Origin: a virus
Taxonomy: Duplodnaviria > Caudoviricetes
Length of the DNA: 56,541 nucleotides
Direction: 5' to 3' (one strand)
IMG/VR virus record: IMGVR_UViG_3300010354_000110
Coordinates: 1-56,541 of that record
Both the position numbers and the translations under genes were made by a program. Below the pieces are notes generated by a model. That model did not search any database. It had not been told where the DNA came from and saw only the letters and a list, made by a program, of their open reading frames with translations. This document shows positions 769-55,221 of this stretch, piece after piece; positions within the stretch are counted from its first letter, which is position 1, and every line of letters begins with the position of its first letter.

Positions 769-951
769 ATGCTTACTGAACCGATCATTAGCGAAGGTAT
801 TCGCTCTGACCACAGGACTAATAAACTCGACAGAGAAATCCAGCGACTTCTAAAGAAAGAGGTGCTGGACGATGCCGATCGGTTTACTTGGTTCTATCTA
901 ACTTCTCAACAGGAAAGCCATGACCAGTTCAACGGAGCCAGGTTCGACTAG
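769..951 (+). CDS. hypothetical protein
   Basis: 60-aa ORF abutting its neighbours. Confidence 0.55.
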   Translation: MLTEPIISEGIRSDHRTNKLDREIQRLLKKEVLDDADRFTWFYLTSQQESHDQFNGARFD

Positions 952-1378
952 TCGCTCTATCGATGAGCCTATCAAACTGCTGATGGCTGGCATGCTAAGG
1001 AATGCCTCAGACGACATCGATAAGTTCATTGCTAATTCAGATCGCGACTATTTTGCAAACACAAATCTGTCGAACAAACATGTCAGAGAATATCTAATCC
1101 CTGTTGTGTGCGTTATTGAGTGGCTAGCATCTGCTGATGACGCTTCAGCAACACTTATAACATTCAACAACGCCTGTGAGATGCTAGGGCTGTGCCCAGA
1201 AGCTACACAGGAACTGTTCCTCAAAAAGATCAGGGGCATATCAAATGCCGGACGTTCTGCAATCCGTCGCTACGTATCAGGAATTCTTTCAGACGATAAG
1301 CAGTTCAGGCAGTATCGTCTCTTTAGTCGGGGGCCGGGTAAAAATCCCTATCGCAGACATTGCGGCAAGCCTAAGTAA
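920..1378 (+). CDS. hypothetical phage protein
   Basis: 152-aa ORF containing WL...TFNNACEMLGLCP, a pattern common in phage hypotheticals. Confidence 0.6.
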   Translation: MTSSTEPGSTSRSIDEPIKLLMAGMLRNASDDIDKFIANSDRDYFANTNLSNKHVREYLIPVVCVIEWLASADDASATLITFNNACEMLGLCPEATQELFLKKIRGISNAGRSAIRRYVSGILSDDKQFRQYRLFSRGPGKNPYRRHCGKPK

Positions 1379-32253: not shown

Positions 32254-32646
32254 ATGCTTACTGTTGCTGTTCCGCTTCTTGTCGCTGCGGCGATCTGTGT
32301 GGTCCGTTCTGCACGGACCACAGATGTCAGTGCATCTCTGAATCAGCAGTTTCTGGACGATTTTCAGAAGTTGCTTAACAAGGAGCGGGGCAGCATCAGC
32401 CCTCATCCCATGGTGTATCGCTATCTTTGGTGGGACATGCCAGAAAACTACGAGTCAGTTAATCGGCTTGTCGCCAAGGGGTATTGGAGGGAGGGCTTCA
32501 ACTTCACCAATGGCAAAGACAATATCTGGTTCGATTACAGTCATGCTGTAGGCTGGACTGCATATCGAAAAGACAGCAAGGGCAGGCAGTCATCCTTGTG
32601 GCTGCCCGCTAGGTTTCCTCAGCACTTCAGCACCTTCTTGGGTTAA
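32254..32646 (+). CDS. hypothetical protein with N-terminal hydrophobic segment
   Basis: MLTVAVPLLVAAAICVV signal/anchor. Confidence 0.6.
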   Translation: MLTVAVPLLVAAAICVVRSARTTDVSASLNQQFLDDFQKLLNKERGSISPHPMVYRYLWWDMPENYESVNRLVAKGYWREGFNFTNGKDNIWFDYSHAVGWTAYRKDSKGRQSSLWLPARFPQHFSTFLG

Positions 32647-43993: not shown

Positions 43994-45784
43994 TTACCCC
44001 ACTAAGGTCTGACGCTCTGGAACGAACTTAACAGGAACCTGCTGGTTCAAAATACCCCTATTCCGGTTCTTTAAGCAGATCAGATTGTAAACATCCTTGC
44101 TGTAGTTGTCGGGATCGACCTGACTAGGCCAAACACAAGCAACAATCACATCAGCCGACTGCTCAATCATCCCTGACGTTCTTAGATCGCCCATCTGAGG
44201 TATCACTACACCACGAATTCGTGGGTCTTGTCTCCGAAGTTGGGCCAGAACAACAAGAGCAACATCGAGTTCTTTTGCCAACTGAGCTAGAACCTTGATA
44301 GACTCACTGACACGGTCAAAGTCCGAACCTTTCCCAAGGATAAGCTCGATATAATCAACTGCAATCAGTGTAGCACCTTTCTCAGCGTAGTGCCGAATCT
44401 CACGGACCACATCAGTTAGCGTCTGGTTGCCACCGCGACTGAAGTAGATTGGTGCTTTGCTTGCGATGTCTGCATCAGCGATCTCGTGAAGTTGTTTAGC
44501 AACATCTGGGTTTCTCCACTCAGTTTTTGGGATGTCTGTGAGACGCTGCAGATGGCGGACCATTATTTGTGATTCCGTCATCTCCAGACTGATGAAGGCA
44601 CATGTCGTACCCTGCTTAGCTGCAGAGTCGAGTACATGCCATGCAGTCATCGTCTTACCCTGACTAGGACGACCAGCAACAACAACCAACTCACCACGAT
44701 CAAGACCACCACCTAATGATGCATTCAATCCAGCGATACCGGTGGTAATCAATCTGTCCTCTCCACTGACCACAGATTCAATAGCTGAGTGCAGAAGTAC
44801 TCCCAATCGATCGCTGGTGACTGCGTCCTTGCGTCCCTGAGGTTTCAGATTGCCGTAAGCATAGCGAACAGTATCTGAAATCCATTGTGGTCTAGTCAGA
44901 CCCTTCTCATAAGAGTTCTGAGCACACCAGTACCGCAAAGCTGCTTCCACTTCTGGAGTGGGCACATAGTTCCGGATCATCTCAGTGCATAGAGCAAAGC
45001 AGATGTCTGATCGACTTCTCTGACCTGACATCCCCGACACATCACCCATCCACCGCTTCAGCAGTAGCTCACCTTCAGGTGCCTCCATGAGAGCAAGCAC
45101 ACGAGCAGGCATCCCTGTCGTCTCATAGGCTCCTACATCACCCATAGAGCGTTCAGACTGCTCGGCTGTATCCCACCAACACTTAGCTTCCAGTTGAGCC
45201 TTGGTGACCTTCTGGATGCCTTTCATGAAGGCAATAGGCTCTGCTTCAGTCAAGTCTGGATTCAAGAACACAGACTTGCCAGCCAAAGGATAACGAATCA
45301 AGTTACCCAAGGGCTTCTCTGTGGTCAACTTCGCCTGACGGGGATAGATTTCAATGGCTTCAAGTTCAAAGTCATTGACTGCCCCTGTTGCAAAGATGCG
45401 GGCTTCCGTGCCATCAATCGGTTCATCGAAGAAGACCCAGACATGCACTCCAGTACCTGACCAGGATCGTTCAAGATAAGAAGGAAAGCCAGACTCTAGC
45501 AAGAACTGCTGAAACTTCTGGCCTTCCTGGATCGCCTCGGGTCTGTTCGACCCGTGGTTGTCAACATCGATCGCTATGCAATTGACCTTGGACTGTTCGG
45601 TCAACAAATAGAAGCCACAGCAGTTCCCATTTGTGTGCCTTTCGATGAACTTGTCAACAGGTACAGGACCATTGAGTTTAAGAGGTCTGAATGTCTGGCC
45701 TGCTGGCTGGTATGCAATATGGTTGTGACGGCCACGAAAGGTACTCAGAAGTAGTTCTGCAACTTCAACCGTCAACATCAGCAT
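43994..45784 (-). CDS. AEP-family primase fused to DnaB-like helicase
   Basis: AEP motifs AIDVD and SWSGTGVHVW; helicase motifs AGRPSQGKT, ISLEM, VDYIELI, LAQL, DLRTSGMIEQSAD, KNRN. Confidence 0.9.
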   Translation of the reverse strand: MLMLTVEVAELLLSTFRGRHNHIAYQPAGQTFRPLKLNGPVPVDKFIERHTNGNCCGFYLLTEQSKVNCIAIDVDNHGSNRPEAIQEGQKFQQFLLESGFPSYLERSWSGTGVHVWVFFDEPIDGTEARIFATGAVNDFELEAIEIYPRQAKLTTEKPLGNLIRYPLAGKSVFLNPDLTEAEPIAFMKGIQKVTKAQLEAKCWWDTAEQSERSMGDVGAYETTGMPARVLALMEAPEGELLLKRWMGDVSGMSGQRSRSDICFALCTEMIRNYVPTPEVEAALRYWCAQNSYEKGLTRPQWISDTVRYAYGNLKPQGRKDAVTSDRLGVLLHSAIESVVSGEDRLITTGIAGLNASLGGGLDRGELVVVAGRPSQGKTMTAWHVLDSAAKQGTTCAFISLEMTESQIMVRHLQRLTDIPKTEWRNPDVAKQLHEIADADIASKAPIYFSRGGNQTLTDVVREIRHYAEKGATLIAVDYIELILGKGSDFDRVSESIKVLAQLAKELDVALVVLAQLRRQDPRIRGVVIPQMGDLRTSGMIEQSADVIVACVWPSQVDPDNYSKDVYNLICLKNRNRGILNQQVPVKFVPERQTLVG

Positions 45785-45995
45785 CCTCTTTGTACTTATC
45801 CATCACATCAAGAGACTTCTTACCCTCAGACGCAAGTGTGGTCTTCAGGTACTTCACTATTCGCTTTACCAGAGCATCATCACTCTCCCCGCACTGCACA
45901 TCTAGGCAGACAATAAAGTCCCTGAAATGCAGTCCGATAGAGTGGTGATTAGTCGTAGCGTTTAGTTTCGTTTTGTCATTGTAGTCTTTTGGCAT
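45765..45995 (-). CDS. hypothetical protein
   Basis: Coupled ORF with AGGAG RBS. Confidence 0.55.
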   Translation of the reverse strand: MPKDYNDKTKLNATTNHHSIGLHFRDFIVCLDVQCGESDDALVKRIVKYLKTTLASEGKKSLDVMDKYKEDADVDG

Positions 45996-46294
45996 TACTG
46001 CACTCCTGTGTAGTCAGCAGCACAGAAACCAGCAGACTGGAAAGCTGCCACAGCTTCTTCTCGACCAACATCGTAACCACGACTAAGCAGGTCATCATTA
46101 ACCCGCTTCCACTCAGCAAACCTGTCTGGAGACAGCAATATCAGATTCAGCTTACCAAAGCGACAGGACTTATCGGACTCGCTGTGGTCCCACAGGGTAT
46201 CTTCATCGATCCCATCAAGGCAGACAACAAGGTCAATATCAGAGTTCTTATGAGGAACTCCGTAGGCATAGCTGCCGGTGATGAATGCGTTCAT
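45995..46294 (-). CDS. minimal nucleotidyltransferase (Pol-beta superfamily)
   Basis: FITGSYAYG....SDIDLVV (hG[GS]...D.D signature). Confidence 0.8.
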   Translation of the reverse strand: MNAFITGSYAYGVPHKNSDIDLVVCLDGIDEDTLWDHSESDKSCRFGKLNLILLSPDRFAEWKRVNDDLLSRGYDVGREEAVAAFQSAGFCAADYTGVQ

Positions 46295-46322
46295 GCTGCT
46301 CCTATAGGTTAGAACTCACAGG

Positions 46323-46431
46323 CCCCTCAGGCTGGATTTGAACCAACAAGTTACTCTCAGATTATTGACCGGTCTGATCTGATTTCACGGCAGTTTGTAT
46401 CCTGCTGCGTTTACCGTTTCGCCACTGGGGG
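46323..46431 (-). ncRNA. tRNA-Leu-like element with irregular anticodon loop and ~40-nt variable arm
   Basis: CCCCCAG/CTGAGGG acceptor, TGGCGAAACGGTAAACGC D arm, GCAG-GATACAAA-CTGC, T arm GTTGG-TTCAAAT-CCAGC. Confidence 0.6.
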
Positions 46432-46438
46432 AGGCACG

Positions 46439-46537
46439 TCCAACGTGGCCGGAATTGCACCGACTAACAGGCCCCAAGTTGCATTTACTAACCCTGGTAT
46501 GCACACCCATGTGTCACTGTCCACACCGCACGTTGGA
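46439..46537 (-). ncRNA. tRNA-like RNA, family member 1
   Basis: TCCAACGTG/CACGTTGGA closing stem, GTGTG-GACAGTGA-CACAT arm, GTCGG-TGCAATT-CCGGC T-like arm. Confidence 0.65.
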
Positions 46538-46609
46538 AGATAAGAACGGGCAGGGCCTATCATTGAACACAAAGGACCAATGAGGAAGGGGTCACTGCCC
46601 TAGACCAAC

Positions 46610-46798
46610 CTAGTCCCGCCAATCGCCGCGGGGATCGAGTTGACCTTCTGTGCCAAAGAAGTCCTCTCCCAGCAAAGAATCCAACGCGACCTGCATGACT
46701 TCTGCCGCTTCTTTTTTCTGAGCATACTCAATAGTATCGAGATAGTCAGCAAACTTACGCAGAACCTTGACAACATTTCGACCAGTGCATTTAGGCTG
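46610..46798 (-). CDS. hypothetical protein
   Basis: LRKFADYLD...LDSLLGEDFFGTEGQLDPRGDWRD; probable start MSQPKC at about 46804. Confidence 0.55.
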   Translation of the reverse strand, partial: QPKCTGRNVVKVLRKFADYLDTIEYAQKKEAAEVMQVALDSLLGEDFFGTEGQLDPRGDWRD

Positions 46799-46928
46799 GG
46801 ACATACTAGACCTACGATAGAACAAAGAAAGAAAGAAACCGACACGGCACGTCGTGAGCGTGCGGATGCTTGGCAACACCCAGACCACATCTGTCTCGTG
46901 TCAGTCTGTCCCGAAGGACAGTACCGCC

Positions 46929-47408
46929 TTAGAAGTCCGCGACTGGCTCAGGAGCAGGAGCAGTCGCCTTGGGCTTCAGGCCAAACATAGCCCGCAACTT
47001 GAGTTTGTCAGTCTCAGTTGCAGGTTTCGCAATTGGATTGCGATTGCTGCGGGGAGTGGAGATATTGAAGCGATCAAACTCCTCTCCCTTGTCATTAGTA
47101 CTGACTCCGCAGTAAACCGGAACAACCTTACCAATCAGTGTCCCGGTCTCAACTGCAGTCAGCCAGTCGTCTGAATCGAGGACAGCAAGCTGATCCACGA
47201 CCACACCGGCTTCAAGAGACTTCTGAGACAGACTCATGAAGATGTCTACCACAGAACTACCGTCAACGGTGATCTTGACACCTTGTGGGTCGGTACGCTC
47301 CAGAAGCTGTACACTCAGGTTCAAACACGGATTGTCATTCTTCGTGTTACCCAAGTCAGCAGCCAAGATACGTGCAGTATATGCACCATTTTGATACTTA
47401 CGAGCCAT
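46929..47408 (-). CDS. putative single-stranded DNA-binding protein (DUF669-like)
   Basis: G.Y.ARI..ADLG.TK..NPCL; acidic-aromatic C-terminus ADF; downstream of a Sak4-like ATPase. Confidence 0.6.
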   Translation of the reverse strand: MARKYQNGAYTARILAADLGNTKNDNPCLNLSVQLLERTDPQGVKITVDGSSVVDIFMSLSQKSLEAGVVVDQLAVLDSDDWLTAVETGTLIGKVVPVYCGVSTNDKGEEFDRFNISTPRSNRNPIAKPATETDKLKLRAMFGLKPKATAPAPEPVADF

Positions 47409-48283
47409 TACTTCGATTCTCCCTTGGAAGTGTTAGAAGCCTTTGCTTGAGCCACAGCGGCTGAGAAGAAAGCGAATGCTTCTTTAGCGGACTTACCCAT
47501 TGAGATGGGTTCTGGGGGCAGTCCCCAGCGATTCTTTGCGGTTGCATTTGGTGACGGGTGGAAAACAATCTCTCGAATGTCTTCACTGAGTGCTCGGTTG
47601 CCCTTATCGGACTTCACCACAACAGGACGCTGTCGCATCCAACCGATACACCCAACATCACGATGCAGAACCTTGAGCAACTCTGTGTGAAGATCAAGAT
47701 CGATTCGATGGAACTCTTCACCGATTTCACCAGCAGGGTTCTTGTCCTTAACGAGTGCTGAATGTCCAAGCAGAATTACCCGCATAGGCTTCCCATCACA
47801 CCCGTTACGCTCAAGAATCTTGCGTACATCCGTGAGCCACTCAGAGAACTGGGATACGCAGGAGCGAAATCCCTGACCATTGTAACCCATGAACTTACGT
47901 TCTGCTGCCTCTTTTGTGCTGTTGTCAGACTTTGCCGACTGTTCAATGCACATCTCGGCTAAATTCAACTGAAACCCACCAAGGTTCTCGAACACAACTG
48001 TCTGACAGTCCACGGGAGTATCAGGGTTAGCCAGTGCCTTAGTCACTTCCCGAAGGTCTGCCCATGTGGTCGTCTCGATAGGAGCGATATCACTGACAAC
48101 CGTACCAGCACGGACTAGATCAGCATAACCACCGTCACGACCATCAGTCACGAACAATGGCTTAGGAAACTGAGAAGCGAAGGATGTCTTCCCATTCCCT
48201 GGCGAGCCGTAGACGACTAGAAGTTCCTTTTGGTCTGGGTTGACTGCCTTCCGCAAGCGGTCCAGAATACTTGCTGCTGCCAT
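47408..48283 (-). CDS. Sak4-like (AAA_24) ATPase/recombinase
   Basis: VYGSPGNGKTSFA, ILLGH, AKNRWGLP. Confidence 0.85.
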   Translation of the reverse strand: MAAASILDRLRKAVNPDQKELLVVYGSPGNGKTSFASQFPKPLFVTDGRDGGYADLVRAGTVVSDIAPIETTTWADLREVTKALANPDTPVDCQTVVFENLGGFQLNLAEMCIEQSAKSDNSTKEAAERKFMGYNGQGFRSCVSQFSEWLTDVRKILERNGCDGKPMRVILLGHSALVKDKNPAGEIGEEFHRIDLDLHTELLKVLHRDVGCIGWMRQRPVVVKSDKGNRALSEDIREIVFHPSPNATAKNRWGLPPEPISMGKSAKEAFAFFSAAVAQAKASNTSKGESK

Positions 48284-48369
48284 TGATGCTCCTGATTAGA
48301 GGGTTAAGGAAAACCGGGATGCCAGTCACCACTCTGGACATCCCGGACAGTCTCACAACTGTGAGGCAA

Positions 48370-48399
48370 ATGGTAGCATAACCACTTGCCATTTGTCAA
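48370..48399 (-). promoter_or_regulatory. sigma70-like promoter
   Basis: TTGACA-N18-TACCAT with TGn extended -10, on the minus strand. Confidence 0.55.
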
Positions 48400-49445
48400 G
48401 TCTCGGTCTTCTGAGGCTTTTCCAAGGGCAGGACAATTGGATCAACCAATCTGTCCGCTAGAAGAATCTCACGACCGGCGTGACACAGTGTACCAAGGTT
48501 CTGAGCCTTTGTCTTAACCTTGACCACAGGTTCAATCGGCTGTTCGCCGTAGCGATACAACCACTTCTGCCTGCAAAACTGAAAGATAGCCTCTTGACTC
48601 GGTGTTACCCCAAGTTCTGGCTTACCATCAGCCACTAACTGTCGCGGTTTGTACAATGTCGCAGCATTGCACTGATCGCTGCACAGCGGGTGGAATTCGC
48701 ACAAAGACCCGTAGTGGAGGCAGGCCCGAAGGTTCCTGTACGAACTAGAAGGATCACCTCCTCTCAAACGAGTTTGTTCCATCTGCGACTGCACCCAATG
48801 GGTTTTGTAGACGAACTCCAACAGTTGCTTTTCATTTCGACGGAAAAACCTCCTCTGAAAGCGATCTGGGTACTGTTCGTACCACGACATCAATCGCCGC
48901 CCATACAGCACAGGCGACTCTTTTTCATCACTAGGCACTTCCCTAGAAACCGGCCAGCCTGCGTACGTACCGAGGTCGTTAATCTCAGTCATAGCAGCCT
49001 TGGTCAGTTTCTTTGGCTCAATTCCAGGCTTCTGGACCACATCCCACTCCAGCCCCGCATCACTAAATCCAGCGGCATATAGCACGAACTGGTATTGTGT
49101 GAGTTGCGGATTGGTCAGTAGTTCTGTCCAGTAGTCATTACTGACGTACCCGGCAGTCTTCATGTCTGTTGCATGAATCTCTCCATTACGTTCAATAATG
49201 GAGTCAATGATTCCACCAATGTATCTCGGCTGCTGTGGTCGCAGGTCTTCTGGTAGATCATCAGGTACAGGCAGTTCAATGCAGAAAGGCACTTCTATCC
49301 CGCGAACCTTTATGTCTGCATCCTCACGCTCATACTTCATCCAGTAGCCGTACATGATAGCACGAGCAGTTTCTACGTCCCAATGATCGGCTCCTTCGTC
49401 TGCCTGCTTGTCATAGAAGTCATTCAGTTTTGCGATGAGATTAAT
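48396..49445 (-). CDS. PD-(D/E)xK (Cas4/RecB-like) exonuclease, circularly permuted, probable ATT start
   Basis: IEVPF, GIIDSI, DMKT, QLTQY, C..C.F..LC. The frame is open 30 codons upstream of ATG 49355 to an ATT with AGGAGG 7 nt before it. Confidence 0.8.
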   Translation of the reverse strand: MNLIAKLNDFYDKQADEGADHWDVETARAIMYGYWMKYEREDADIKVRGIEVPFCIELPVPDDLPEDLRPQQPRYIGGIIDSIIERNGEIHATDMKTAGYVSNDYWTELLTNPQLTQYQFVLYAAGFSDAGLEWDVVQKPGIEPKKLTKAAMTEINDLGTYAGWPVSREVPSDEKESPVLYGRRLMSWYEQYPDRFQRRFFRRNEKQLLEFVYKTHWVQSQMEQTRLRGGDPSSSYRNLRACLHYGSLCEFHPLCSDQCNAATLYKPRQLVADGKPELGVTPSQEAIFQFCRQKWLYRYGEQPIEPVVKVKTKAQNLGTLCHAGREILLADRLVDPIVLPLEKPQKTET

Positions 49446-49446
49446 T

Positions 49447-50073
49447 CTAACGCCTCCTAACTGATGTAGTTAGTGTATCAGGAATCGACCACCCAAGACT
49501 CAACCGCCGTCGTATCACACTCACGCTTATGCCTAGTAGCCTAGACCACTGTGTTATGGTCCTTGTCTCGCCGTTGAAAGATAGGAGCTTGCTAGACCGT
49601 TTGTTGTTCTCTTGCTCATCTTTAGTAGCCCAACGACAGTTATCTTTGCAGTAGTTGCCATTATTATCGATACGGTCGAGACTGTGCTTCTCTGATGGCC
49701 TGTCTCCCATATCTGCGTAGAACTGTTCAAAGGATGACCACTCAGGGCAGACTGTGATGCCACGACCGCCATAGTTCTTGTAGCACTCAAGCGACTCGGC
49801 TCCGCACCTACGACGCATAGCATGCCACGCATCATATTCCGGAGTTCCACGCTTCCCGTGTTTTGTCGTAGCCAGTTTTGCTCGCTCTATCCGCATACAA
49901 CCGCATGATTGTGTATGATTGGTCTTAAGACTTGTACCAAAAGCCGTTGTACACCCACCACAATTACACACGCACTCCCATCTGGTGCTTCCGCAACGAC
50001 TATTCTCAACCCGCCTAACAACAGTCAGTCTCCCAAATACCTGTCCAGTCAGGTCCAGTGCTTTCCTACCCAT
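49447..50073 (-). CDS. HNH homing endonuclease
   Basis: DLTGQVFGRL, SCGC, YGGRGI, HSLDRIDNNGNYCKDNCRWAT. Confidence 0.9.
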   Translation of the reverse strand: MGRKALDLTGQVFGRLTVVRRVENSRCGSTRWECVCNCGGCTTAFGTSLKTNHTQSCGCMRIERAKLATTKHGKRGTPEYDAWHAMRRRCGAESLECYKNYGGRGITVCPEWSSFEQFYADMGDRPSEKHSLDRIDNNGNYCKDNCRWATKDEQENNKRSSKLLSFNGETRTITQWSRLLGISVSVIRRRLSLGWSIPDTLTTSVRRR

Positions 50074-50086
50074 CTCAACCCCCTAA

Positions 50087-50281
50087 CTAGGTCCAACACA
50101 ACAGAAGAAAAGGACCAACACCGAAACTGTGCCAAGGACCATCATACCAGTCCTTATGATATCCCCAACTCCAGGCGGACAGTCCGTGGACTCCCTTGCA
50201 AGGAAACAGGTGAAGGGCTACATCGCGTGTGTAAACAGTACCGAGTCCCGCGTGTTTCCAGAAGAAAGAGAACCTAACCAT
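50087..50281 (-). CDS. hypothetical protein
   Basis: AGGAG RBS; WGYHKDWYDGPWHSFGVGP. Confidence 0.55.
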   Translation of the reverse strand: MVRFSFFWKHAGLGTVYTRDVALHLFPCKGVHGLSAWSWGYHKDWYDGPWHSFGVGPFLLLCWT

Positions 50282-50282
50282 A

Positions 50283-50510
50283 TCACTCTCCTGTTACACT
50301 AACCCCATCCCAGGTCAGTGGAGCAAGCTCCTGCACTGTCACATCAAACTGCTGCTCCTCTTGCAACAAATCAACCTCACCTTGCAACTTAGCATAGGCA
50401 GGCAGGACCATATTGACAAACTGCGAATGGAACTGGCACATCGAAACACAGCCTGGATGTGCTGGAAAGATACTCACAACGTAGTCAAGAATCTCTTTCT
50501 CTGTGTTCAT
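50283..50510 (-). CDS. hypothetical protein
   Basis: 75-aa ORF in operon. Confidence 0.5.
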   Translation of the reverse strand: MNTEKEILDYVVSIFPAHPGCVSMCQFHSQFVNMVLPAYAKLQGEVDLLQEEQQFDVTVQELAPLTWDGVSVTGE

Positions 50511-50769
50511 TTCCCGTCATCCTTTCAAGGGTTTGTAGTAGCAACCATAGATCAGTCAGGCACTCTCTGTGGTCGCTATGAGCCAAAGACCAGCAAGCCC
50601 ATCTTGCCTGTTCTTTCTCTTCATCTGTGGTCTGATTTGATCTGATGATATGGATGTATGGAGCGATCACTCCGAAGAACTCGATCATCAGAGTTTCTTC
50701 AACCAATCGAACAACTTGAGAATCAGTACTGTACAGACAGTCAGTACACCGCAGTACAGAAACATCCAC
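50485..50769 (-). CDS. hypothetical protein
   Basis: 94-aa ORF; start uncertain. Confidence 0.45.
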   Translation of the reverse strand: MDVSVLRCTDCLYSTDSQVVRLVEETLMIEFFGVIAPYIHIIRSNQTTDEEKEQARWACWSLAHSDHRECLTDLWLLLQTLERMTGNEHRERDS

Positions 50770-50842
50770 GCCGACGTTGTGGAAGTGAACTCAGTAAAAC
50801 TCTGCCAGAATCTGTCCACAGAACACCTCTCAAAATGCTTCC

Positions 50843-50941
50843 AAATCGCACAGGATCGCGTATGGAGCCTTCAAACGGGTCAGGACGTACTTTGAGTCGT
50901 CCTGAGAATTTGAAGCCCGTATAGGGCATCCTATGCGTTTG
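50843..50941. repeat. dispersed ~95-bp imperfect palindrome, copy D
   Basis: AAATCGCACAGGATCG ... CAGGACGTACTTTGAGTCGTCCTG ... CATCCTATGCGTTTG. Confidence 0.6.
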
Positions 50942-50944
50942 CAG

Positions 50945-51142
50945 CTAGTTTGTGGTCACTCGAAGTTCTGAACAGGCAGCGTCCCATAAGGTAGCTGCGG
51001 GCTGATCTGGCCTTTTGAACTTGTTGAATGCATCCCGCTCACCACACAGTTGAAAGTACTGGATAGTTAGGATGATGCCAACAAAGCAAAGAAACACGAC
51101 AGCAGCACTACCATCAGAACCAGAGCCACGACGAAACTGCAT
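50945..51142 (-). CDS. small membrane protein
   Basis: GGAG RBS before MQFRRG; TM AAVVFLCFVGIILTI. Confidence 0.6.
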   Translation of the reverse strand: MQFRRGSGSDGSAAVVFLCFVGIILTIQYFQLCGERDAFNKFKRPDQPAATLWDAACSELRVTTN

Positions 51143-51169
51143 GGTGCACTCCAAAAGTGTTATGTGAAA

Positions 51170-51288
51170 TTGACGTGGCCGGAATCGAACCGGCTTGGAA
51201 CACCTATTGGCCGCAACCCGTGCCGTTTCCGCTTGGGCTGTAGGTTCCGCCGTCATCGCTGCGTGTCACCGTCCACGCCGCACGTCAA
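51170..51288 (-). ncRNA. tRNA-like RNA, family member 2
   Basis: TTGACGTG/CACGTCAA closing stem, GCGTG-GACGGTGA-CACGC arm, GCCGG-TTCGATT-CCGGC T arm. Confidence 0.68.
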
Positions 51289-51367
51289 CGCCGGTCTATC
51301 CCGGCTGTCTGCTGAACACGCCATTACTGACGCATTCGTTACGACACCTACACATGGTAGATACGTA

Positions 51368-51438
51368 TGTTCTCTGATGGGAGTCGAACCCATCACGAAG
51401 ATGATTTGTTCACCCTCGCAGTATCCGGCTAGAGAACA
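51368..51438 (-). ncRNA. D-armless tRNA-like element
   Basis: TGTTCTCT/AGAGAACA stem, 10-bp hairpin, GATGGG-TTCGACT-CCCATC T arm. Confidence 0.55.
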
Positions 51439-51569
51439 CCCAGCAGATTTCCGCCTATCGCGATTACCTACTCTCGTCAGAATAGGCAGGCTTCCCGACT
51501 GCTGGATTAGACTCCCCAAAATTGCACTCGGTCCTAGGCATGCCCGTTACCGGTCGTGTGGGGAGTTCA

Positions 51570-51645
51570 TGGTGGAGGCCAGATTTGAACTGGCGATCTT
51601 CAGCTAATGAGGCTGACGGGGACGACCAGACTCCCCTACTCCACT
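51570..51645 (-). tRNA. tRNA-Met(CAT), initiator-like
   Basis: AGTGGAG/CTCCACC with 1:72 mismatch, GGGG..CCCC D stem, TCAGC-CTCATTA-GCTGA, AGATC variable loop, GCCAG-TTCAAAT-CTGGC. Confidence 0.82.
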
Positions 51646-51681
51646 GCATTTGCGAAGGATAGCACAACCTGCTGGCGGTTG

Positions 51682-51912
51682 TCAAGTGTAGCCAAAGAGA
51701 CGCCAGAACCAGTTCGGCTTTTGGTAAGTACCGAACCATTGTAATGATTCTGTTGTAACTGGTAGACAGGGGAAGCCATGTATGCGGTATTGTACATACA
51801 AACCATCCTCAGAGACATCACTGATAACAGCATTGCTGTACGATACAAAACCATACATGTCCTTGTGCTTAATCCGCCAGTGTTGGCCGATCTGCGGTGC
51901 TGTTGCATCCAT
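51682..51912 (-). CDS. hypothetical protein
   Basis: PQIGQHWR... SH3-like; coupled to the upstream gene. Confidence 0.55.
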   Translation of the reverse strand: MDATAPQIGQHWRIKHKDMYGFVSYSNAVISDVSEDGLYVQYRIHGFPCLPVTTESLQWFGTYQKPNWFWRLFGYT

Positions 51913-52940
51913 CAGGCAACCCCTCCATCGACTCGGCGGTACATCCCGACCACCTGATAATCAGGTTCAGTGTGTTCATGGACATACTCCAGTTCAGACA
52001 GTCTGACCACAGGGAAGAAGCCATCTAGTCTGCTTTTGTGGCCGCTGTCCCTCAGCAGTGAGACCCGGACTCCAAGATTGTCCAAGTTTCGTCTAGCTCC
52101 GATCAGACGACCCGAAGTCACACGGTAATGATGGTCTGAACGGATATTGTCTTTCAGCTTTGTGTTAGCAGAACCAGAACTGTACATCGTAGGTGTGGTC
52201 ATTCGACTCAGCATCGAAATGAGTTCATCCACTACTGCCTCACACGCCTCTTTCTGACTGTCGTTCATCTCTGAAGGTGGTGTATCTTTGCAAACTTTAG
52301 CATGAGCAACGCAGGACAACGCTTCCATGCTGGAGTTCACGTTGCAGGCCAGAGAGAACGGCATGTCTGCACCAACCAGTTTGAGTTGCTGATTGATGTA
52401 ATCTACCTGCTCATCAGACAAAGCAGTGTAAAGATCAGCACCGTGCAACAGGATGTCACGATAACCCAATTTGATTGCGATGTCAACCGCCTGCAACATC
52501 GAATCGCGGGTGTCAATCACAGGACCCAGTGTGAACAGCTCACCATTGCTTGCTCGCTTCTGTGGATCAAAGAAGACCACAGATGGGCACTCTGCTAAGG
52601 TAGCTGTGCCGTCCCTTAGCAGCTCACCTGCACGATTTGATGGGGCAAACTTGATGGTTCTGGGATCGTAGAACACAACCTGATCGAACCTTGCTGGATT
52701 GTCGTAACCGGTCCAGTAAGTAGGGAAGAGTCGAGCATTTGTTCCTGTAGGCCTATGCCCGCAGTTCACTGAAAGACTTGCCGACCCCTTGGATAATAAA
52801 ATACTCTGAACACTGTCCCAGGTGGCTGACGGTCCTCCAAGAAGGATAACGATAGACTGCCTTTTAGCTGATGAGCACAGGCCAAGCAGACCATCTGCGT
52901 CTCGCTTAAAACCGTCTGGTAGAAGGCGGTGAAAGATCAT
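51912..52940 (-). CDS. DUF115/MAF-family glycosyltransferase-like protein
   Basis: VILLGGPSA, LSVN, AVDIAIKLGYRDILLHGADL. Confidence 0.65.
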   Translation of the reverse strand: MIFHRLLPDGFKRDADGLLGLCSSAKRQSIVILLGGPSATWDSVQSILLSKGSASLSVNCGHRPTGTNARLFPTYWTGYDNPARFDQVVFYDPRTIKFAPSNRAGELLRDGTATLAECPSVVFFDPQKRASNGELFTLGPVIDTRDSMLQAVDIAIKLGYRDILLHGADLYTALSDEQVDYINQQLKLVGADMPFSLACNVNSSMEALSCVAHAKVCKDTPPSEMNDSQKEACEAVVDELISMLSRMTTPTMYSSGSANTKLKDNIRSDHHYRVTSGRLIGARRNLDNLGVRVSLLRDSGHKSRLDGFFPVVRLSELEYVHEHTEPDYQVVGMYRRVDGGVA

Positions 52941-53362: not shown

Positions 53363-53560
53363 TCATGTTGATTCCTTGATAAAGACACCGAAAAGTGTGA
53401 AGCAGCCCACAGCAACGATGGAACAAACAACAGAGGCTGTTGCGGCCCTGTTGTCTCGCACCTTCTCGGCAGCCCCGTTGATGTTGCCGTCTTCTTCAGC
53501 ATAGCCTAATGCACAGACCGTGTAAAGACCTGCACACACAAGAGCAGCGATTTGAATCAT
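53363..53560 (-). CDS. small two-TM membrane protein
   Basis: MIQIAALVCAGLYTVCALG ... SVVCSIVAVGCFTLFGVFI. Confidence 0.5.
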   Translation of the reverse strand: MIQIAALVCAGLYTVCALGYAEEDGNINGAAEKVRDNRAATASVVCSIVAVGCFTLFGVFIKEST

Positions 53561-54114
53561 CGCTGGGACTTTGTATCGATAGGTACGCGATCTTTGCATG
53601 TTGTGCACGGCACAGCCCTCGGAGATTGTTTGCCTGTGTCCAGGTTGACCTTGCCCTTGCCAGCAATCTCCCGACTGGCAACTGAGCACTCACAATCAAA
53701 GAGGCGACAACGAAAGATAGGCACTTGTGGCTTTCCTGTCAAGGCTTGGCAAGGAGCACACCCGGCCAGTCGAACTGGCTCGAATGAGCGGTGGACACAA
53801 GAATACCGCAGTTCCAGGTCAATGTTCGTCAGATTTTTTCCAAAAGACAGAAGAACCGACAGAATCCTGCCCTTTTGCATGGTGGTGTACTCCTTGGACA
53901 GCCTCTCAGTCAAGGCGGCTGAAGGGGACTCAAGGACCACTGTGGTCGCATGATTCTCACAGACTGACCACAGGGTGTCATCAATCTTCCCGATGATGCA
54001 GTCATAGTGGACAGACCAGTCTGGTTCGGTATCGACAGAGAACACCCTACCGTACCTCTTCAACTCTGTTGCGATAAAGTCAATGCTTTTCGAGTTAATC
54101 TCCAGAATTCTCAT
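53557..54114 (-). CDS. hypothetical protein with Cys-rich C-terminal domain
   Basis: CVHR..GCAPC..FRCRLFDCEC..CTTC; GGAG RBS before MRILEIN. Confidence 0.6.
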   Translation of the reverse strand: MRILEINSKSIDFIATELKRYGRVFSVDTEPDWSVHYDCIIGKIDDTLWSVCENHATTVVLESPSAALTERLSKEYTTMQKGRILSVLLSFGKNLTNIDLELRYSCVHRSFEPVRLAGCAPCQALTGKPQVPIFRCRLFDCECSVASREIAGKGKVNLDTGKQSPRAVPCTTCKDRVPIDTKSQR

Positions 54115-54298
54115 TGACTTCTCCAGACCATCCAATAGGTGTTCCTGAAACCTGCCCAAAAACAAACAGCAACTCCTGCTGAGAAAGTCCACTGGTTTCA
54201 GAGAACTCTTCAACTACTGGAATGCGATTCAATCTGTTTCTGTGCTGTGCAATTCGATCTCGGTCTTGTTGATCCATGATTTCCCTTAACAGTGCCAC
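54095..54298 (-). CDS. hypothetical protein
   Basis: Fills the gap between coupled genes. Confidence 0.5.
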   Translation of the reverse strand: MALLREIMDQQDRDRIAQHRNRLNRIPVVEEFSETSGLSQQELLFVFGQVSGTPIGWSGEVNENSGD

Positions 54299-55221
54299 AC
54301 TGGGCGACCAACCAGTTTCTCAATAGCAGCAGACTGCACCGCATCGGACTCCAGCATTGCAATGGAATGGTCGAGACCCCGTGGCACAGATGCCATAAGC
54401 CCTCTGCAAATTTTCGCCTTGTGTTGTACAATAGAGTCAAAAGTCCTGCTGCCGTCTGCATGCATTTTCAGGTCAACATTCACTCCGTATCGCTCCAACC
54501 AGCGAACAGTCTCATATCGCCACTTCTCCCGTCTTCCGGTTGCAATCATTACCCGTGATCTTCGTGGCAAGCACTTAGGCTTAACTGATCTAATCCAGTC
54601 TAGGTATCTCGGACCGTCATCATCACACTCAGCAGGACAATCCTCACAGATCAGTCCGTCCATGTCCCAAACGATCCTTCCACTGTACGTGCTGTTACCA
54701 ACATTCCATTCAAGGACATGGGGATTATTGAGATACTGTGCGAAGTGGTCAGCTTTAACAGCGGCTTTGGGATGCTGATAAACAGCACATGTACTGACCT
54801 TTTCACAGTATTTGCCAACAATGCTCAGTGACTTCTGCATAGAATCGCCACTGCATACTGTGTCGTCGATCAATACTGTCTTACCAAGAGCAGTTGATCT
54901 ACCTTTAAGACGGAATCCATGACCAGCATGAACAATATCTCCGGTAGATTGCCGAAGAATATACAATGGAAGATGAAGCATCTGAGCAATCGTAGCCGCA
55001 GGTGCAAGTCCTGATCTAGCCACACCGACCACAGAGTCGTATCCTGCGAGTTCTGGTACAAGACTCAGGGAATCCTGAATGAGTTCCTGAGTAGTGATCC
55101 ATTGCCGCCTGGATAGTGATACAGTCGGGTGATTGTCCACCGATTCTTCCTCTCCTCGGAGTCTTTTACGGTGAGACCTGATTCTCTCCATTGCCTGCTT
55201 ATCAGTTGTTGGTGTAGACAT
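54286..55221 (-). CDS. phosphoribosyltransferase fused to a HAD-like domain
   Basis: VVGVARSGL and VLIDDTVCSGDSM (PRPP-binding loop); WDMDGLIC, IATGR, MLESD (HAD motifs). Confidence 0.82.
   Translation of the reverse strand: MSTPTTDKQAMERIRSHRKRLRGEEESVDNHPTVSLSRRQWITTQELIQDSLSLVPELAGYDSVVGVARSGLAPAATIAQMLHLPLYILRQSTGDIVHAGHGFRLKGRSTALGKTVLIDDTVCSGDSMQKSLSIVGKYCEKVSTCAVYQHPKAAVKADHFAQYLNNPHVLEWNVGNSTYSGRIVWDMDGLICEDCPAECDDDGPRYLDWIRSVKPKCLPRRSRVMIATGRREKWRYETVRWLERYGVNVDLKMHADGSRTFDSIVQHKAKICRGLMASVPRGLDHSIAMLESDAVQSAAIEKLVGRPVWHC

Follow-up and report, generated by a model that had tools for sequence, protein, structure and literature searches.

Phages commonly carry transfer RNA (tRNA) genes, whose roles are usually taken to be limited to codon usage or protection against nucleases. 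RNAs with the fold of a tRNA occur in other settings as well. The t-elements of plant mitochondria are degenerate, intergenic tRNA-like folds that are cut by RNase P and RNase Z; we know of no case in which they carry exchangeable cassettes. YrlA, a bacterial Y RNA that occurs in phages too, contains a tRNA-like module within a noncoding RNA (ncRNA) whose ends leave through an anticodon-side, Ro60-binding helix. The engineered "tRNA scaffold" of Ponchon and Dardel reportedly holds a foreign RNA at the site of the anticodon arm while the acceptor, D, and T arms are retained, and the cell is said to process and stabilize the inserted RNA as it does a tRNA. Here, we describe elements A and B, two tRNA-like RNA genes without an anticodon arm that lie on the minus strand of the IMG/VR virus record IMGVR_UViG_3300010354_000110. 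The window, by which we mean the whole stretch of DNA analyzed, is this complete record of 56,541 bases (completeness estimate, 55%). As judged from alignments, the tRNA-like frame, or chassis, of these elements is conserved with covariation in phages of differing proteins, whereas the cassette that it encloses is unrelated between orthologs and has been reassorted between phage backgrounds. The genes are co-oriented in clusters of tRNA and ncRNA genes directly upstream of ribosome-binding sites.

Architecture of elements A and B

Both elements lie within 1 nt of where the initial annotation of this DNA had placed them. Their parts are given below; bit scores are those of R1, a covariance model made from seven members of the family.

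46536-46440, minus strand: element A, an anticodon-less tRNA-like RNA gene of 97 nt (from sequence; R1, 84.5 bits)
46536-46529 and 46447-46440, minus strand: 5′ and 3′ acceptor strands of A, with the linker at 46528-46527
46526-46522 / 46521-46514 / 46513-46509, minus strand: D stem, loop, and stem of A
46464-46460 / 46459-46453 / 46452-46448, minus strand: T stem, loop, and stem of A
46465-46508, minus strand: middle of A (putative cargo cassette, 44 nt, type 1)
51288-51170, minus strand: element B, an anticodon-less tRNA-like RNA gene of 119 nt (from sequence; R1, 103.6 bits)
51288-51281 and 51177-51170, minus strand: 5′ and 3′ acceptor strands of B, with the linker at 51280-51279
51278-51274 / 51273-51266 / 51265-51261, minus strand: D stem, loop, and stem of B
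51194-51190 / 51189-51183 / 51182-51178, minus strand: T stem, loop, and stem of B
51195-51260, minus strand: middle of B (putative cargo cassette, 66 nt)

In the RNA sense, A reads CCAACGTG / CG / GTGTG-GACAGTGA-CACAT / 44-nt middle / GTCGG-TGCAATT-CCGGC / CACGTTGG, and B reads TTGACGTG / CG / GCGTG-GACGGTGA-CACGC / 66-nt middle / GCCGG-TTCGATT-CCGGC / CACGTCAA. Both share one layout: a closing helix of 8 bp is followed by the linker CG, by a D hairpin (5 bp, 8-nt loop), by the middle, and by a T arm of 5 bp whose T-type loop measures 7 nt and which directly adjoins the 3′ strand of the closing helix. As far as the sequence tells, the chassis is the acceptor/T minihelix plus the elbow of a tRNA, comprising a 7- or 8-bp helix, a 2-nt linker, a 5-bp D hairpin with a 7- to 8-nt loop, and a T arm; the cassette occupies the place where the anticodon arm and variable loop would be. 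RNAs of this form would decode no codons.

Direct comparison of the sequences shows identity between A and B at 21 of the 28 positions of the 5′ module and at 19 of the 25 positions of the 3′ module. Acceptor pairs 1 to 3 and D pair 2 are altered on both sides, so that the compensatory changes reported initially for two stems are correct, and D pair 1 and T pair 2 switch from G.U to G-C. The loop TGCAATT of A has a G at the place of U55. Chance is excluded as the source of this likeness. A 21-nt 5′ motif common to the two elements has exactly two copies in the record, both on the minus strand, and a backward control gave none. The T-loop motif GGTNCRANTCC occurs five times in the window, against 0.77 expected, and none of 100 shuffles reached five; four of these matches are on the minus strand, in A, B, and two other tRNA-like elements. 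The fifth is on the plus strand at 55001-55011, within a 315-aa frame. The end of B is 27 nt from the ATG of a small gene at 51142, with GGAG present, and the ortholog of A in the related sequence L003 stops ∼24 nt short of a start codon.

An eighth closing pair is present in 12 of the 13 scorable members (U-A in seven, C-G in five, and one mismatch). All five C-G cases come from orthologs of a single locus, and U-1/A73 is found at ordinary tRNA-Pro genes too; the extra pair may be no more than U-1 facing A73, and we therefore give the length of the closing helix as 7 or 8 bp.

Over the window, ARAGORN with default settings and Rfam at gathering scores found only two tRNA-Met genes, neither of which is A or B, in agreement with the initial annotation, which had held that these are not standard tRNAs and have no canonical anticodon arm. 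The tRNA model RF00005 (gathering score, 29 bits) did not match either element even at E ≤ 10. At this threshold, A matched no Rfam family, and B gave fragments of the T arm only (cyano_tmRNA, 21.4 bits against a gathering score of 70; tmRNA_permuted, 16.7 bits). In the window and in 11 related loci alike, the elements remained without an Rfam family, and no family matched either element in full. Constrained and free folds gave one to three unrelated hairpins instead of an anticodon stem with a 7-nt loop, while the acceptor helix and a T arm with a T loop are present in both elements. Rfam gave no match of A or B to YrlA/Y RNA, and the ends of both RNAs form the acceptor helix; the Rfam tRNA-Sec model did not match them at E ≤ 10.

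With the option -m, ARAGORN found no transfer-messenger RNA (tmRNA) in the window, and acceptor pair 3-70 is A3-U70 in both A and B, not G3.U70. A mini-tmRNA was rejected, given the absence of an ARAGORN tmRNA, the restriction of the Rfam fragments to the T arm, and the lack, by eye, of a convincing tag frame in B, L012, and L250. A and B are not tmRNAs because they have no G3.U70, no tag frame, and a closed D hairpin. Two further candidates were discarded: an upstream TGGCGTG as an alternative acceptor strand of B, which is part of a separate conserved hairpin, and a low-threshold ARAGORN "tRNA-SeC" at 32464-32549, which is coding-like and was not reproduced on the excised stretch.

When introns are allowed and thresholds lowered, ARAGORN does call B as a tRNA-Pro(ggg) with a 34-nt intron and A as a tRNA-Gln(ttg) with a 25-nt intron, as would be expected of working tRNAs whose intron or extra arm is removed or tolerated. 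However, the threshold needed to call A gives 38 calls over the window, mostly inside genes, the intron models are inconsistent, and the proposed anticodon stems contain mismatches. Moreover, the scan of reading frames revealed neither an RNA ligase nor a splicing enzyme, and the orthologs of A and B share no exon-like sequence beside the D or T arm, for which reason the intron-bearing tRNA was rejected. Working tRNAs of this kind, already disfavored, seem very improbable.

The chassis family and its middles

The initial annotation had taken A and B for a two-member family. This was wrong: there are at least 14 distinct members from unrelated phage contigs, together with two other aberrant tRNA-like elements in the same clusters. 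The 14 distinct members were gathered from viral and metagenome contigs. Relatives of the window were reached through its helicase and a 342-aa protein (51912-52940), in which they are 74 to 80% identical. Orthologs of A with the same arms are found in L003/L022, G002 (= L160), L249, and L254, and orthologs of B in L009/L011 and L007/L026; in L011_B and L026_B, the arms are kept and the D stem is compensated (GCGGG/CCCGC). Scanning viral contigs with a pattern of the T arm and the 3′ strand returned 24 stretches, 20 of which have a fully complementary 5′ strand at a tRNA-like distance and a D hairpin; the remaining four look like chance coding matches. L012 and L029, from phages with different neighbor genes, carry the CG linker and the hairpin GYGTG...CACRC, neither of which the pattern required.

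The 5′ motif alone proved poorly specific. Among six viral loci that it matched, the four new ones gave no R1 match, and of its 67 distinct metagenome matches, we accepted five by eye as full members (L212, L221, L249, L250, and L254). To these may be added a variant, L189, and an incomplete copy, L209; the others look like GC-rich coding DNA, and L226 and L258 were discounted, though among the seven metagenome matches flagged by script. An exact-pattern scan of the viral contigs with the 23-nt common 5′ motif found nothing. R1 matched four times in G001, three times in G002, once each in G004 and G005, and not at all in G003.

In an alignment of seven members, 95.2% of 126 cells are paired, and 7 of 18 pairs have changed on both sides, with slid controls at 28 to 38%. 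With 14 members, 98.3% of 242 stem cells are paired (27-38% with a slid partner), and 7 of 18 pairs have changed on both sides, in 30 cells. None of 500 shuffles reached the covariation score of either alignment, which bears out the conserved tRNA-like frame of acceptor helix, D hairpin, and T arm proposed at the outset.

Two of the related sequences contain unusual arrangements of the chassis. L029:10150-10592 (minus strand; G005, classed as a provirus) is a tandem array of the chassis type in which each copy starts with ATGGACGTG; the second copy has a 9-nt loop that replaces the T loop, and the third runs from ∼10160. In G001, L003:9237-9336 (plus strand) is a third chassis-type element beside a tRNA-Thr (R1, 20 bits), with a bulged 9-bp closing helix and a T-loop-like hairpin inserted into its D loop.

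Across the 14 members there are 13 unrelated middles, of 9 to 112 nt. An all-against-all BLAST of the middles found only the pair from the window and L254 to be alike, with no match elsewhere in 1.64 Mb of fetched loci. The B cassette, likewise, showed no likeness to the other cargos or to these loci, and an exact scan with a 20-nt piece of the A cassette gave no match. Simple drift does not explain this diversity. Between the window and L254, the flanking coding DNA is 79.6% identical over 2373 nt, the A elements are 98.2% identical over 114 nt, and the A cassettes are identical at 44 of 44 positions; of the two differences within the element, one falls in the D loop and the other changes U.G to U-A in the T stem. 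The upstream flank and a conserved 175-nt spacer downstream are common to L254 and L249, whose cassettes, D loops, and T loops differ, and the window and G002 have another upstream flank in common but different cassettes. The A cassette is swapped for unrelated sequence in L022, G002, and L249.

The types of loop also travel together. A GACAG-type D loop occurs with TGCAATT in four of four cases (drawn from the A and B loci and from a third one), and a GTGNGAA D loop occurs with TTCAAAT in four of four. The exchanged unit therefore extends from the D loop through the T loop, and the acceptor strands and outer stems are its common flanks. RNA clusters are better conserved than the neighboring coding DNA, both between the window and L254 (98.2% and 90.1% versus 79.6%) and between L249 and G002 (97.8% versus 88.4%).

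Neighboring RNA elements and genomic setting

The following features accompany A and B.

46323-46431, minus strand: element C, a tRNA-Leu-like RNA that bears an additional hairpin and a long arm (Rfam tRNA, 31.7 bits with a 49-nt insertion)
51369-51437, minus strand: element D, a 69-nt tRNA-like RNA without D and anticodon arms (weak tRNA-Sec match, 18.9 bits)
51440-51566 (continuing to 51300), minus strand: conserved structured leader with helices P-I and P-II, between tRNA-Met and D
51570-51645, minus strand: tRNA-Met (CAT), a true tRNA and the first gene of the B cluster (ARAGORN; Rfam, 51.4 bits)
51656-51685, minus strand: sigma70-like promoter (TTGACA, 18 nt, TATCCT, with TG; 10/12 in a consensus scan, a consensus match being no proof of function)
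43994-45784, minus strand: primase-helicase (frame scan)
same replication/recombination module, minus strand: Sak4-like annealing protein, PD-(D/E)XK exonuclease, and HNH endonuclease (frame scan)
45995-46294, minus strand: 99-aa minimal nucleotidyltransferase (NTP_transf_2, E 3.4e-06), directly after C

The B cluster, which the sigma70-like site precedes, runs in the order tRNA-Met, leader, D, two hairpins, and B, which is its last RNA. The site of element D is occupied by a real tRNA in L007 (5673-5745; Rfam tRNA, 42.4 bits) and L009 (5483-5556; 50.7 bits). In the window and L008 the interior has been replaced, while the acceptor and T arm are the same in all four; the T stem of D is compensated between the window and L008. 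Retained arms around an altered interior thus recur at this locus, as in A and B. The tRNA at this locus in L009 has a CUA anticodon within an 8-nt loop and could, from its sequence, be an amber suppressor.

The conversion at the D locus of a real tRNA into an anticodon-less form is what one would expect if A and B, too, were relics, that is, former tRNA genes whose interior was destroyed by insertion or recombination and which have no present function. Stray T-arm-like hairpins in the cassettes of G002_A, L003:9237-9336, and L011_B fit such an origin, as does the fact that phage tRNA regions are recombination hot spots, an HNH endonuclease gene being positioned here between the A and B clusters. 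Relics would not be expected, however, to keep three stems by compensatory changes in 14 members from unrelated phages, nor to lie in RNA clusters better conserved than the adjacent coding DNA, and we regard this explanation as quite improbable.

The leader belongs to one transcription unit with B, is 78 to 92% identical in four phages, and has no Rfam match. RNAalifold on the whole alignment of 51572-51296 found 12 of 69 pairs to be compensated. The leader contains an 8-bp helix that encloses a variable interior, a 9-bp helix that encloses a 10-bp GACG-loop hairpin (seven compensated pairs in L009), and an invariant self-complementary ATCGCGAT; the two hairpins come after D. Visual inspection also revealed TTGACA...TATCAT in front of the leader in L007 and L008. 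CCA is not encoded in the tRNA-Met at 51570-51645, which may be initiator-like because its first pair is nonstandard (A1 opposite C72 in the Rfam alignment).

Element C sits 8 nt downstream of A in the same ncRNA cluster and has a different chassis. Its D region is closely similar to that of bacterial tRNA-Leu. The extra hairpin (4 bp, 8-nt loop) follows the D arm, and the acceptor in the window has one C × A mismatch. ARAGORN -i gave inconsistent intron models for C. Its long arm and acceptor show compensatory changes across four phages, the long-arm stems being CAGAT/ATCTG, CAGAC/GTCTG, CAGGT/GCCTG, and CAGGC/GCCTG. The 175-nt spacer between A and C is near-identical in G002 (L160, ∼860-1030, minus strand), L254, and L249 and is absent from the window; including C, it is 97.8% identical between L249 and G002. 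It forms several hairpins, one with a swap of loop and stem (TGCCAGCGGCA versus TGCCGCTGGCA), and may be a further ncRNA or a tiny gene. The 99-aa nucleotidyltransferase, which could be a lone MNT-type antitoxin-like gene, adjoins C in two sequences, the window and G002. As it does not do so in L254 and L249, a link between C and this gene was dropped. A 96-aa frame upstream of A (46600-46890, minus strand) is missing in L254, and two RNA-library runs have contigs that lack it as well (joints 46542>46832 and 46590>46836); it is therefore an insertion specific to the lineage of the window.

The minus-strand region around A and B is a phage replication and recombination module. Frames elsewhere in the window encode a portal protein, terminase, family A DNA polymerase, DNA methylase, RuvC, ThyX, and a serine recombinase. 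The search for a tyrosine integrase gave none, and a link to attP and an integrase was rejected, since both acceptor strands are present in the elements, which are hence not attachment-site fragments. Megablast of 45500-52500 against phage records gave no match that would reveal a close cultured relative, a distant search of these records matched only the tRNA-Met part, and the relatives of the helicase among cultured phages are distant (<60% identity). Two metagenome DNA runs labeled as aquatic or freshwater contain most of the stretch, further runs contain small shares, and run X2, from a separate sample, has a contig identical across 46291-46794.

Interpretation and relation to known systems

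The explanation that we favor, with somewhat less than even confidence, is that A and B are anticodon-less tRNA-like chassis that are processed like a pre-tRNA and carry an exchangeable, working RNA cassette. The transcript of each cluster would be cut by host enzymes, namely by RNase P at the 5′ end and by RNase Z or exonucleases, followed by CCA addition, at the 3′ end; we infer host processing because those enzymes need only the minihelix and elbow. Cutting would release a stable L-shaped particle comparable to the engineered scaffold, and the cassette would be its allele-specific working part, binding a host RNA or protein.

Transcription was considered in three river metatranscriptome runs (X22-X24), examined as assembled contigs. 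RNA-library contigs of related phages match both arms of A and skip the A cassette, at depths of 25.5, 18.6, and 5.9; one loose end resembles the L249 cassette. In the bin that covers A together with part of C, the depths are 20.7, 6.95, and 2.12 in the three runs, with neighbor bins at 0 to 1.3, and the leader bin 51436-51622 has the highest depth (198.6 in X22). Because assembled contigs of RNA libraries may hold DNA, these depths are a hint only. Adapter-bearing contig ends coincide at 51542 in two runs.

Several observations weigh against the reading of A and B as carriers of a working cassette. The depths above give no more than a hint that the A and B regions are transcribed, and the B cassette did not turn up in the contigs of X22-X24, although neither this nor the stretches without coverage in these runs are evidence of absence. 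The whole-element fold stability of A and B is not significantly different from that of shuffles (z, -0.57 and -0.64); because the fold energy is no better, it is the comparison of related sequences that carries the argument. In the closing helix, five inner pairs are invariant, as are three in the T stem, and such invariant stem positions are in part built in by the search patterns. Among 12 cargos, the cassettes folded no better than dinucleotide shuffles (z from -1.95 to +1.82; mean, -0.18), and the A cassette folds worse than 299 of 300 shuffles. Of the tRNA scaffold with variable cargo that the initial annotation envisaged, the variable middle is borne out (13 middles in 14 members, reassorted); a structured cargo finds no support. 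The suggested guide or antisense role found no general support either, with seven of eight cargos at chance for complementarity to their own phage genome. The eighth, the B cassette, has an exact 14-nt stretch complementary to minus-strand mRNA at 54132-54145, which 1 of 200 shuffles reached and which is marginal after eight tests; the site lies 68 to 81 nt after the start of a 218-aa frame (53557-54213, minus strand). The identity of the cassettes in the window and L254 could reflect recent transfer rather than constraint, and two arm changes against no cassette change do not separate the two. A scan of 56 reading frames revealed no partner such as an RNA ligase, SmpB, Ro60, a reverse transcriptase, or a CCA enzyme, and the record is estimated to be just 55% complete. 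Activity of the cassette, processing by RNase P/Z, and stability of the A and B RNAs are steps that we infer.

The lack of a structure signal in the cassettes, and of targets for them in the phage, would fit the main rival, in which only the arms matter. A and B would then be tRNA-like punctuation comparable to the t-elements, namely RNase P/Z cut sites that separate tRNAs, leader, and mRNAs and provide these with defined and protected ends, and the middle would be filler, subject to drift or to replacement through recombination. This agrees with the intergenic and co-oriented position of the elements, which end 24 to 28 nt before start codons, and with a 61-nt member (L028/L148) that has just a 9-nt middle. 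A related 79-nt class points the same way: found in nine viral contigs (L014:5759-5841 and L015, L017, L019, L021, L024, L025, L031, and L033), it lies between the prohead protease and major capsid genes, beginning 10 nt past the stop of the former and ∼90 nt ahead of the latter, and combines a Chloroflexi-type tmRNA helix (G3.U70, A73) and T arm with a long hairpin that replaces the D and anticodon arms. On the other hand, 12 of 14 members would have to have retained filler of 40 to 110 nt although phage genomes are usually under pressure to stay small, the full identity of the cassette between the window and L254 contrasts with flanks that are 79.6% identical, and the true tRNAs of the same clusters could already give cutting sites. 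We consider punctuation alone unlikely.

The reading of A and B as chassis with a working cassette can be carried further. Phages might possess a natural tRNA scaffold system in which a host-processed, nondecoding chassis receives effector cassettes that are swapped by recombination in the arms and used as tools against the host, a proposal that we offer as possible but doubtful. The cassettes could, for example, be mimics of antitoxin or guide RNAs, sponges for defense proteins, or regulators of host mRNAs, and true tRNA genes, as at the D locus, would be convertible into carriers and back.

Whatever its function, the case presents a conserved nondecoding tRNA frame with an interior that phages exchange. 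Active inserts would mean that phages have a modular route to express and trade small RNAs, and that a natural counterpart of the laboratory scaffold for stable RNAs exists. If only the frame is active, it would represent tRNA-like punctuation of phage transcripts or mimicry of a partner of tRNA or tmRNA. On either reading, such genes escape annotation pipelines; to detect them in metagenomes, a covariance model that leaves the insert free would serve. The B cluster contains, in addition, another unnamed structured RNA.

One known system close to A and B is the canonical tRNA (RF00005), tRNA-Pro being the nearest type, with which they share the acceptor helix, the 2-nt linker, the D hairpin, and a T loop of the TTCGATT type; their genes are likewise located among true tRNA genes. 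They differ from it in having no anticodon arm or variable loop, an unrelated insert of 44 or 66 nt, and a D stem of 5 bp. Applied to five bacterial genomes, R1 gave three tRNA-Pro genes in two genomes as its best canonical matches (24-31 bits).

The second likeness is to tmRNA. The T arm and 3′ acceptor strand of B match the 3′ terminus of tmRNAs from Chloroflexi/Anaerolineae genomes at 24 of 25 positions, and the tRNA-like domain of tmRNA also has no anticodon arm. Sister viral elements (the L014 class, L023, L027, L030, and L038) keep the tmRNA helix GGGCGTG/CACGTCC with G3.U70 and A73, and CCA is encoded in L012 and L023. Such features, and a chassis kept across unrelated phages, would suit a decoy or sponge for a host factor that reads the acceptor, T arm, or elbow, such as a tRNA-directed defense nuclease, a modifying toxin, or SmpB; the chassis would then be the active part, and loss of the anticodon arm would keep A and B out of translation. 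However, tmRNA measures ∼390 nt, compared with 97 to 119 nt for A and B, which have no tag frame or pseudoknots, carry A3-U70 in place of G3.U70, have a closed D hairpin, and are matched by tmRNA models in the T arm only, far below the gathering score. The best bacterial look-alikes of R1 are tRNA-Pro genes, and the likeness to tmRNA may therefore be generic. This likeness points to a Chloroflexi host, but the 61-nt member sits in an Enterococcus-labeled scaffold. A decoy would, moreover, leave the long exchangeable cassettes unexplained, and we consider it improbable as the function of these elements.

Among the other tRNA-like RNAs, A and B share with t-elements a tRNA-like fold located between genes. 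YrlA differs in that its ends do not form an acceptor helix as those of A and B do, and no Ro60-like frame was found among the 56 scanned. The engineered tRNA scaffold is a laboratory design, whereas the arrangement of A and B is natural. The murine gammaherpesvirus 68 TMER reportedly offers a viral, nondecoding tRNA-like frame that produces other small RNAs; it belongs to a eukaryotic virus, and its cargo, pre-miRNA hairpins, lies downstream of the tRNA-like part, whereas the cargo of A and B lies inside. The types of tRNA-Sec and allo-tRNA with an 8-bp acceptor (PMC5389517) have in common with A and B the possible 8-bp acceptor combined with a 5-bp T stem and the extended D stem; A and B differ in having no anticodon arm. 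Full-text literature searches, judged on titles and the openings of abstracts, returned no phage anticodon-less tRNA-like RNAs with inserts. Whereas tRNA-like ncRNAs and pseudo-tRNAs are already known, the new aspect of A and B is an exchangeable interior in a conserved, nondecoding chassis.

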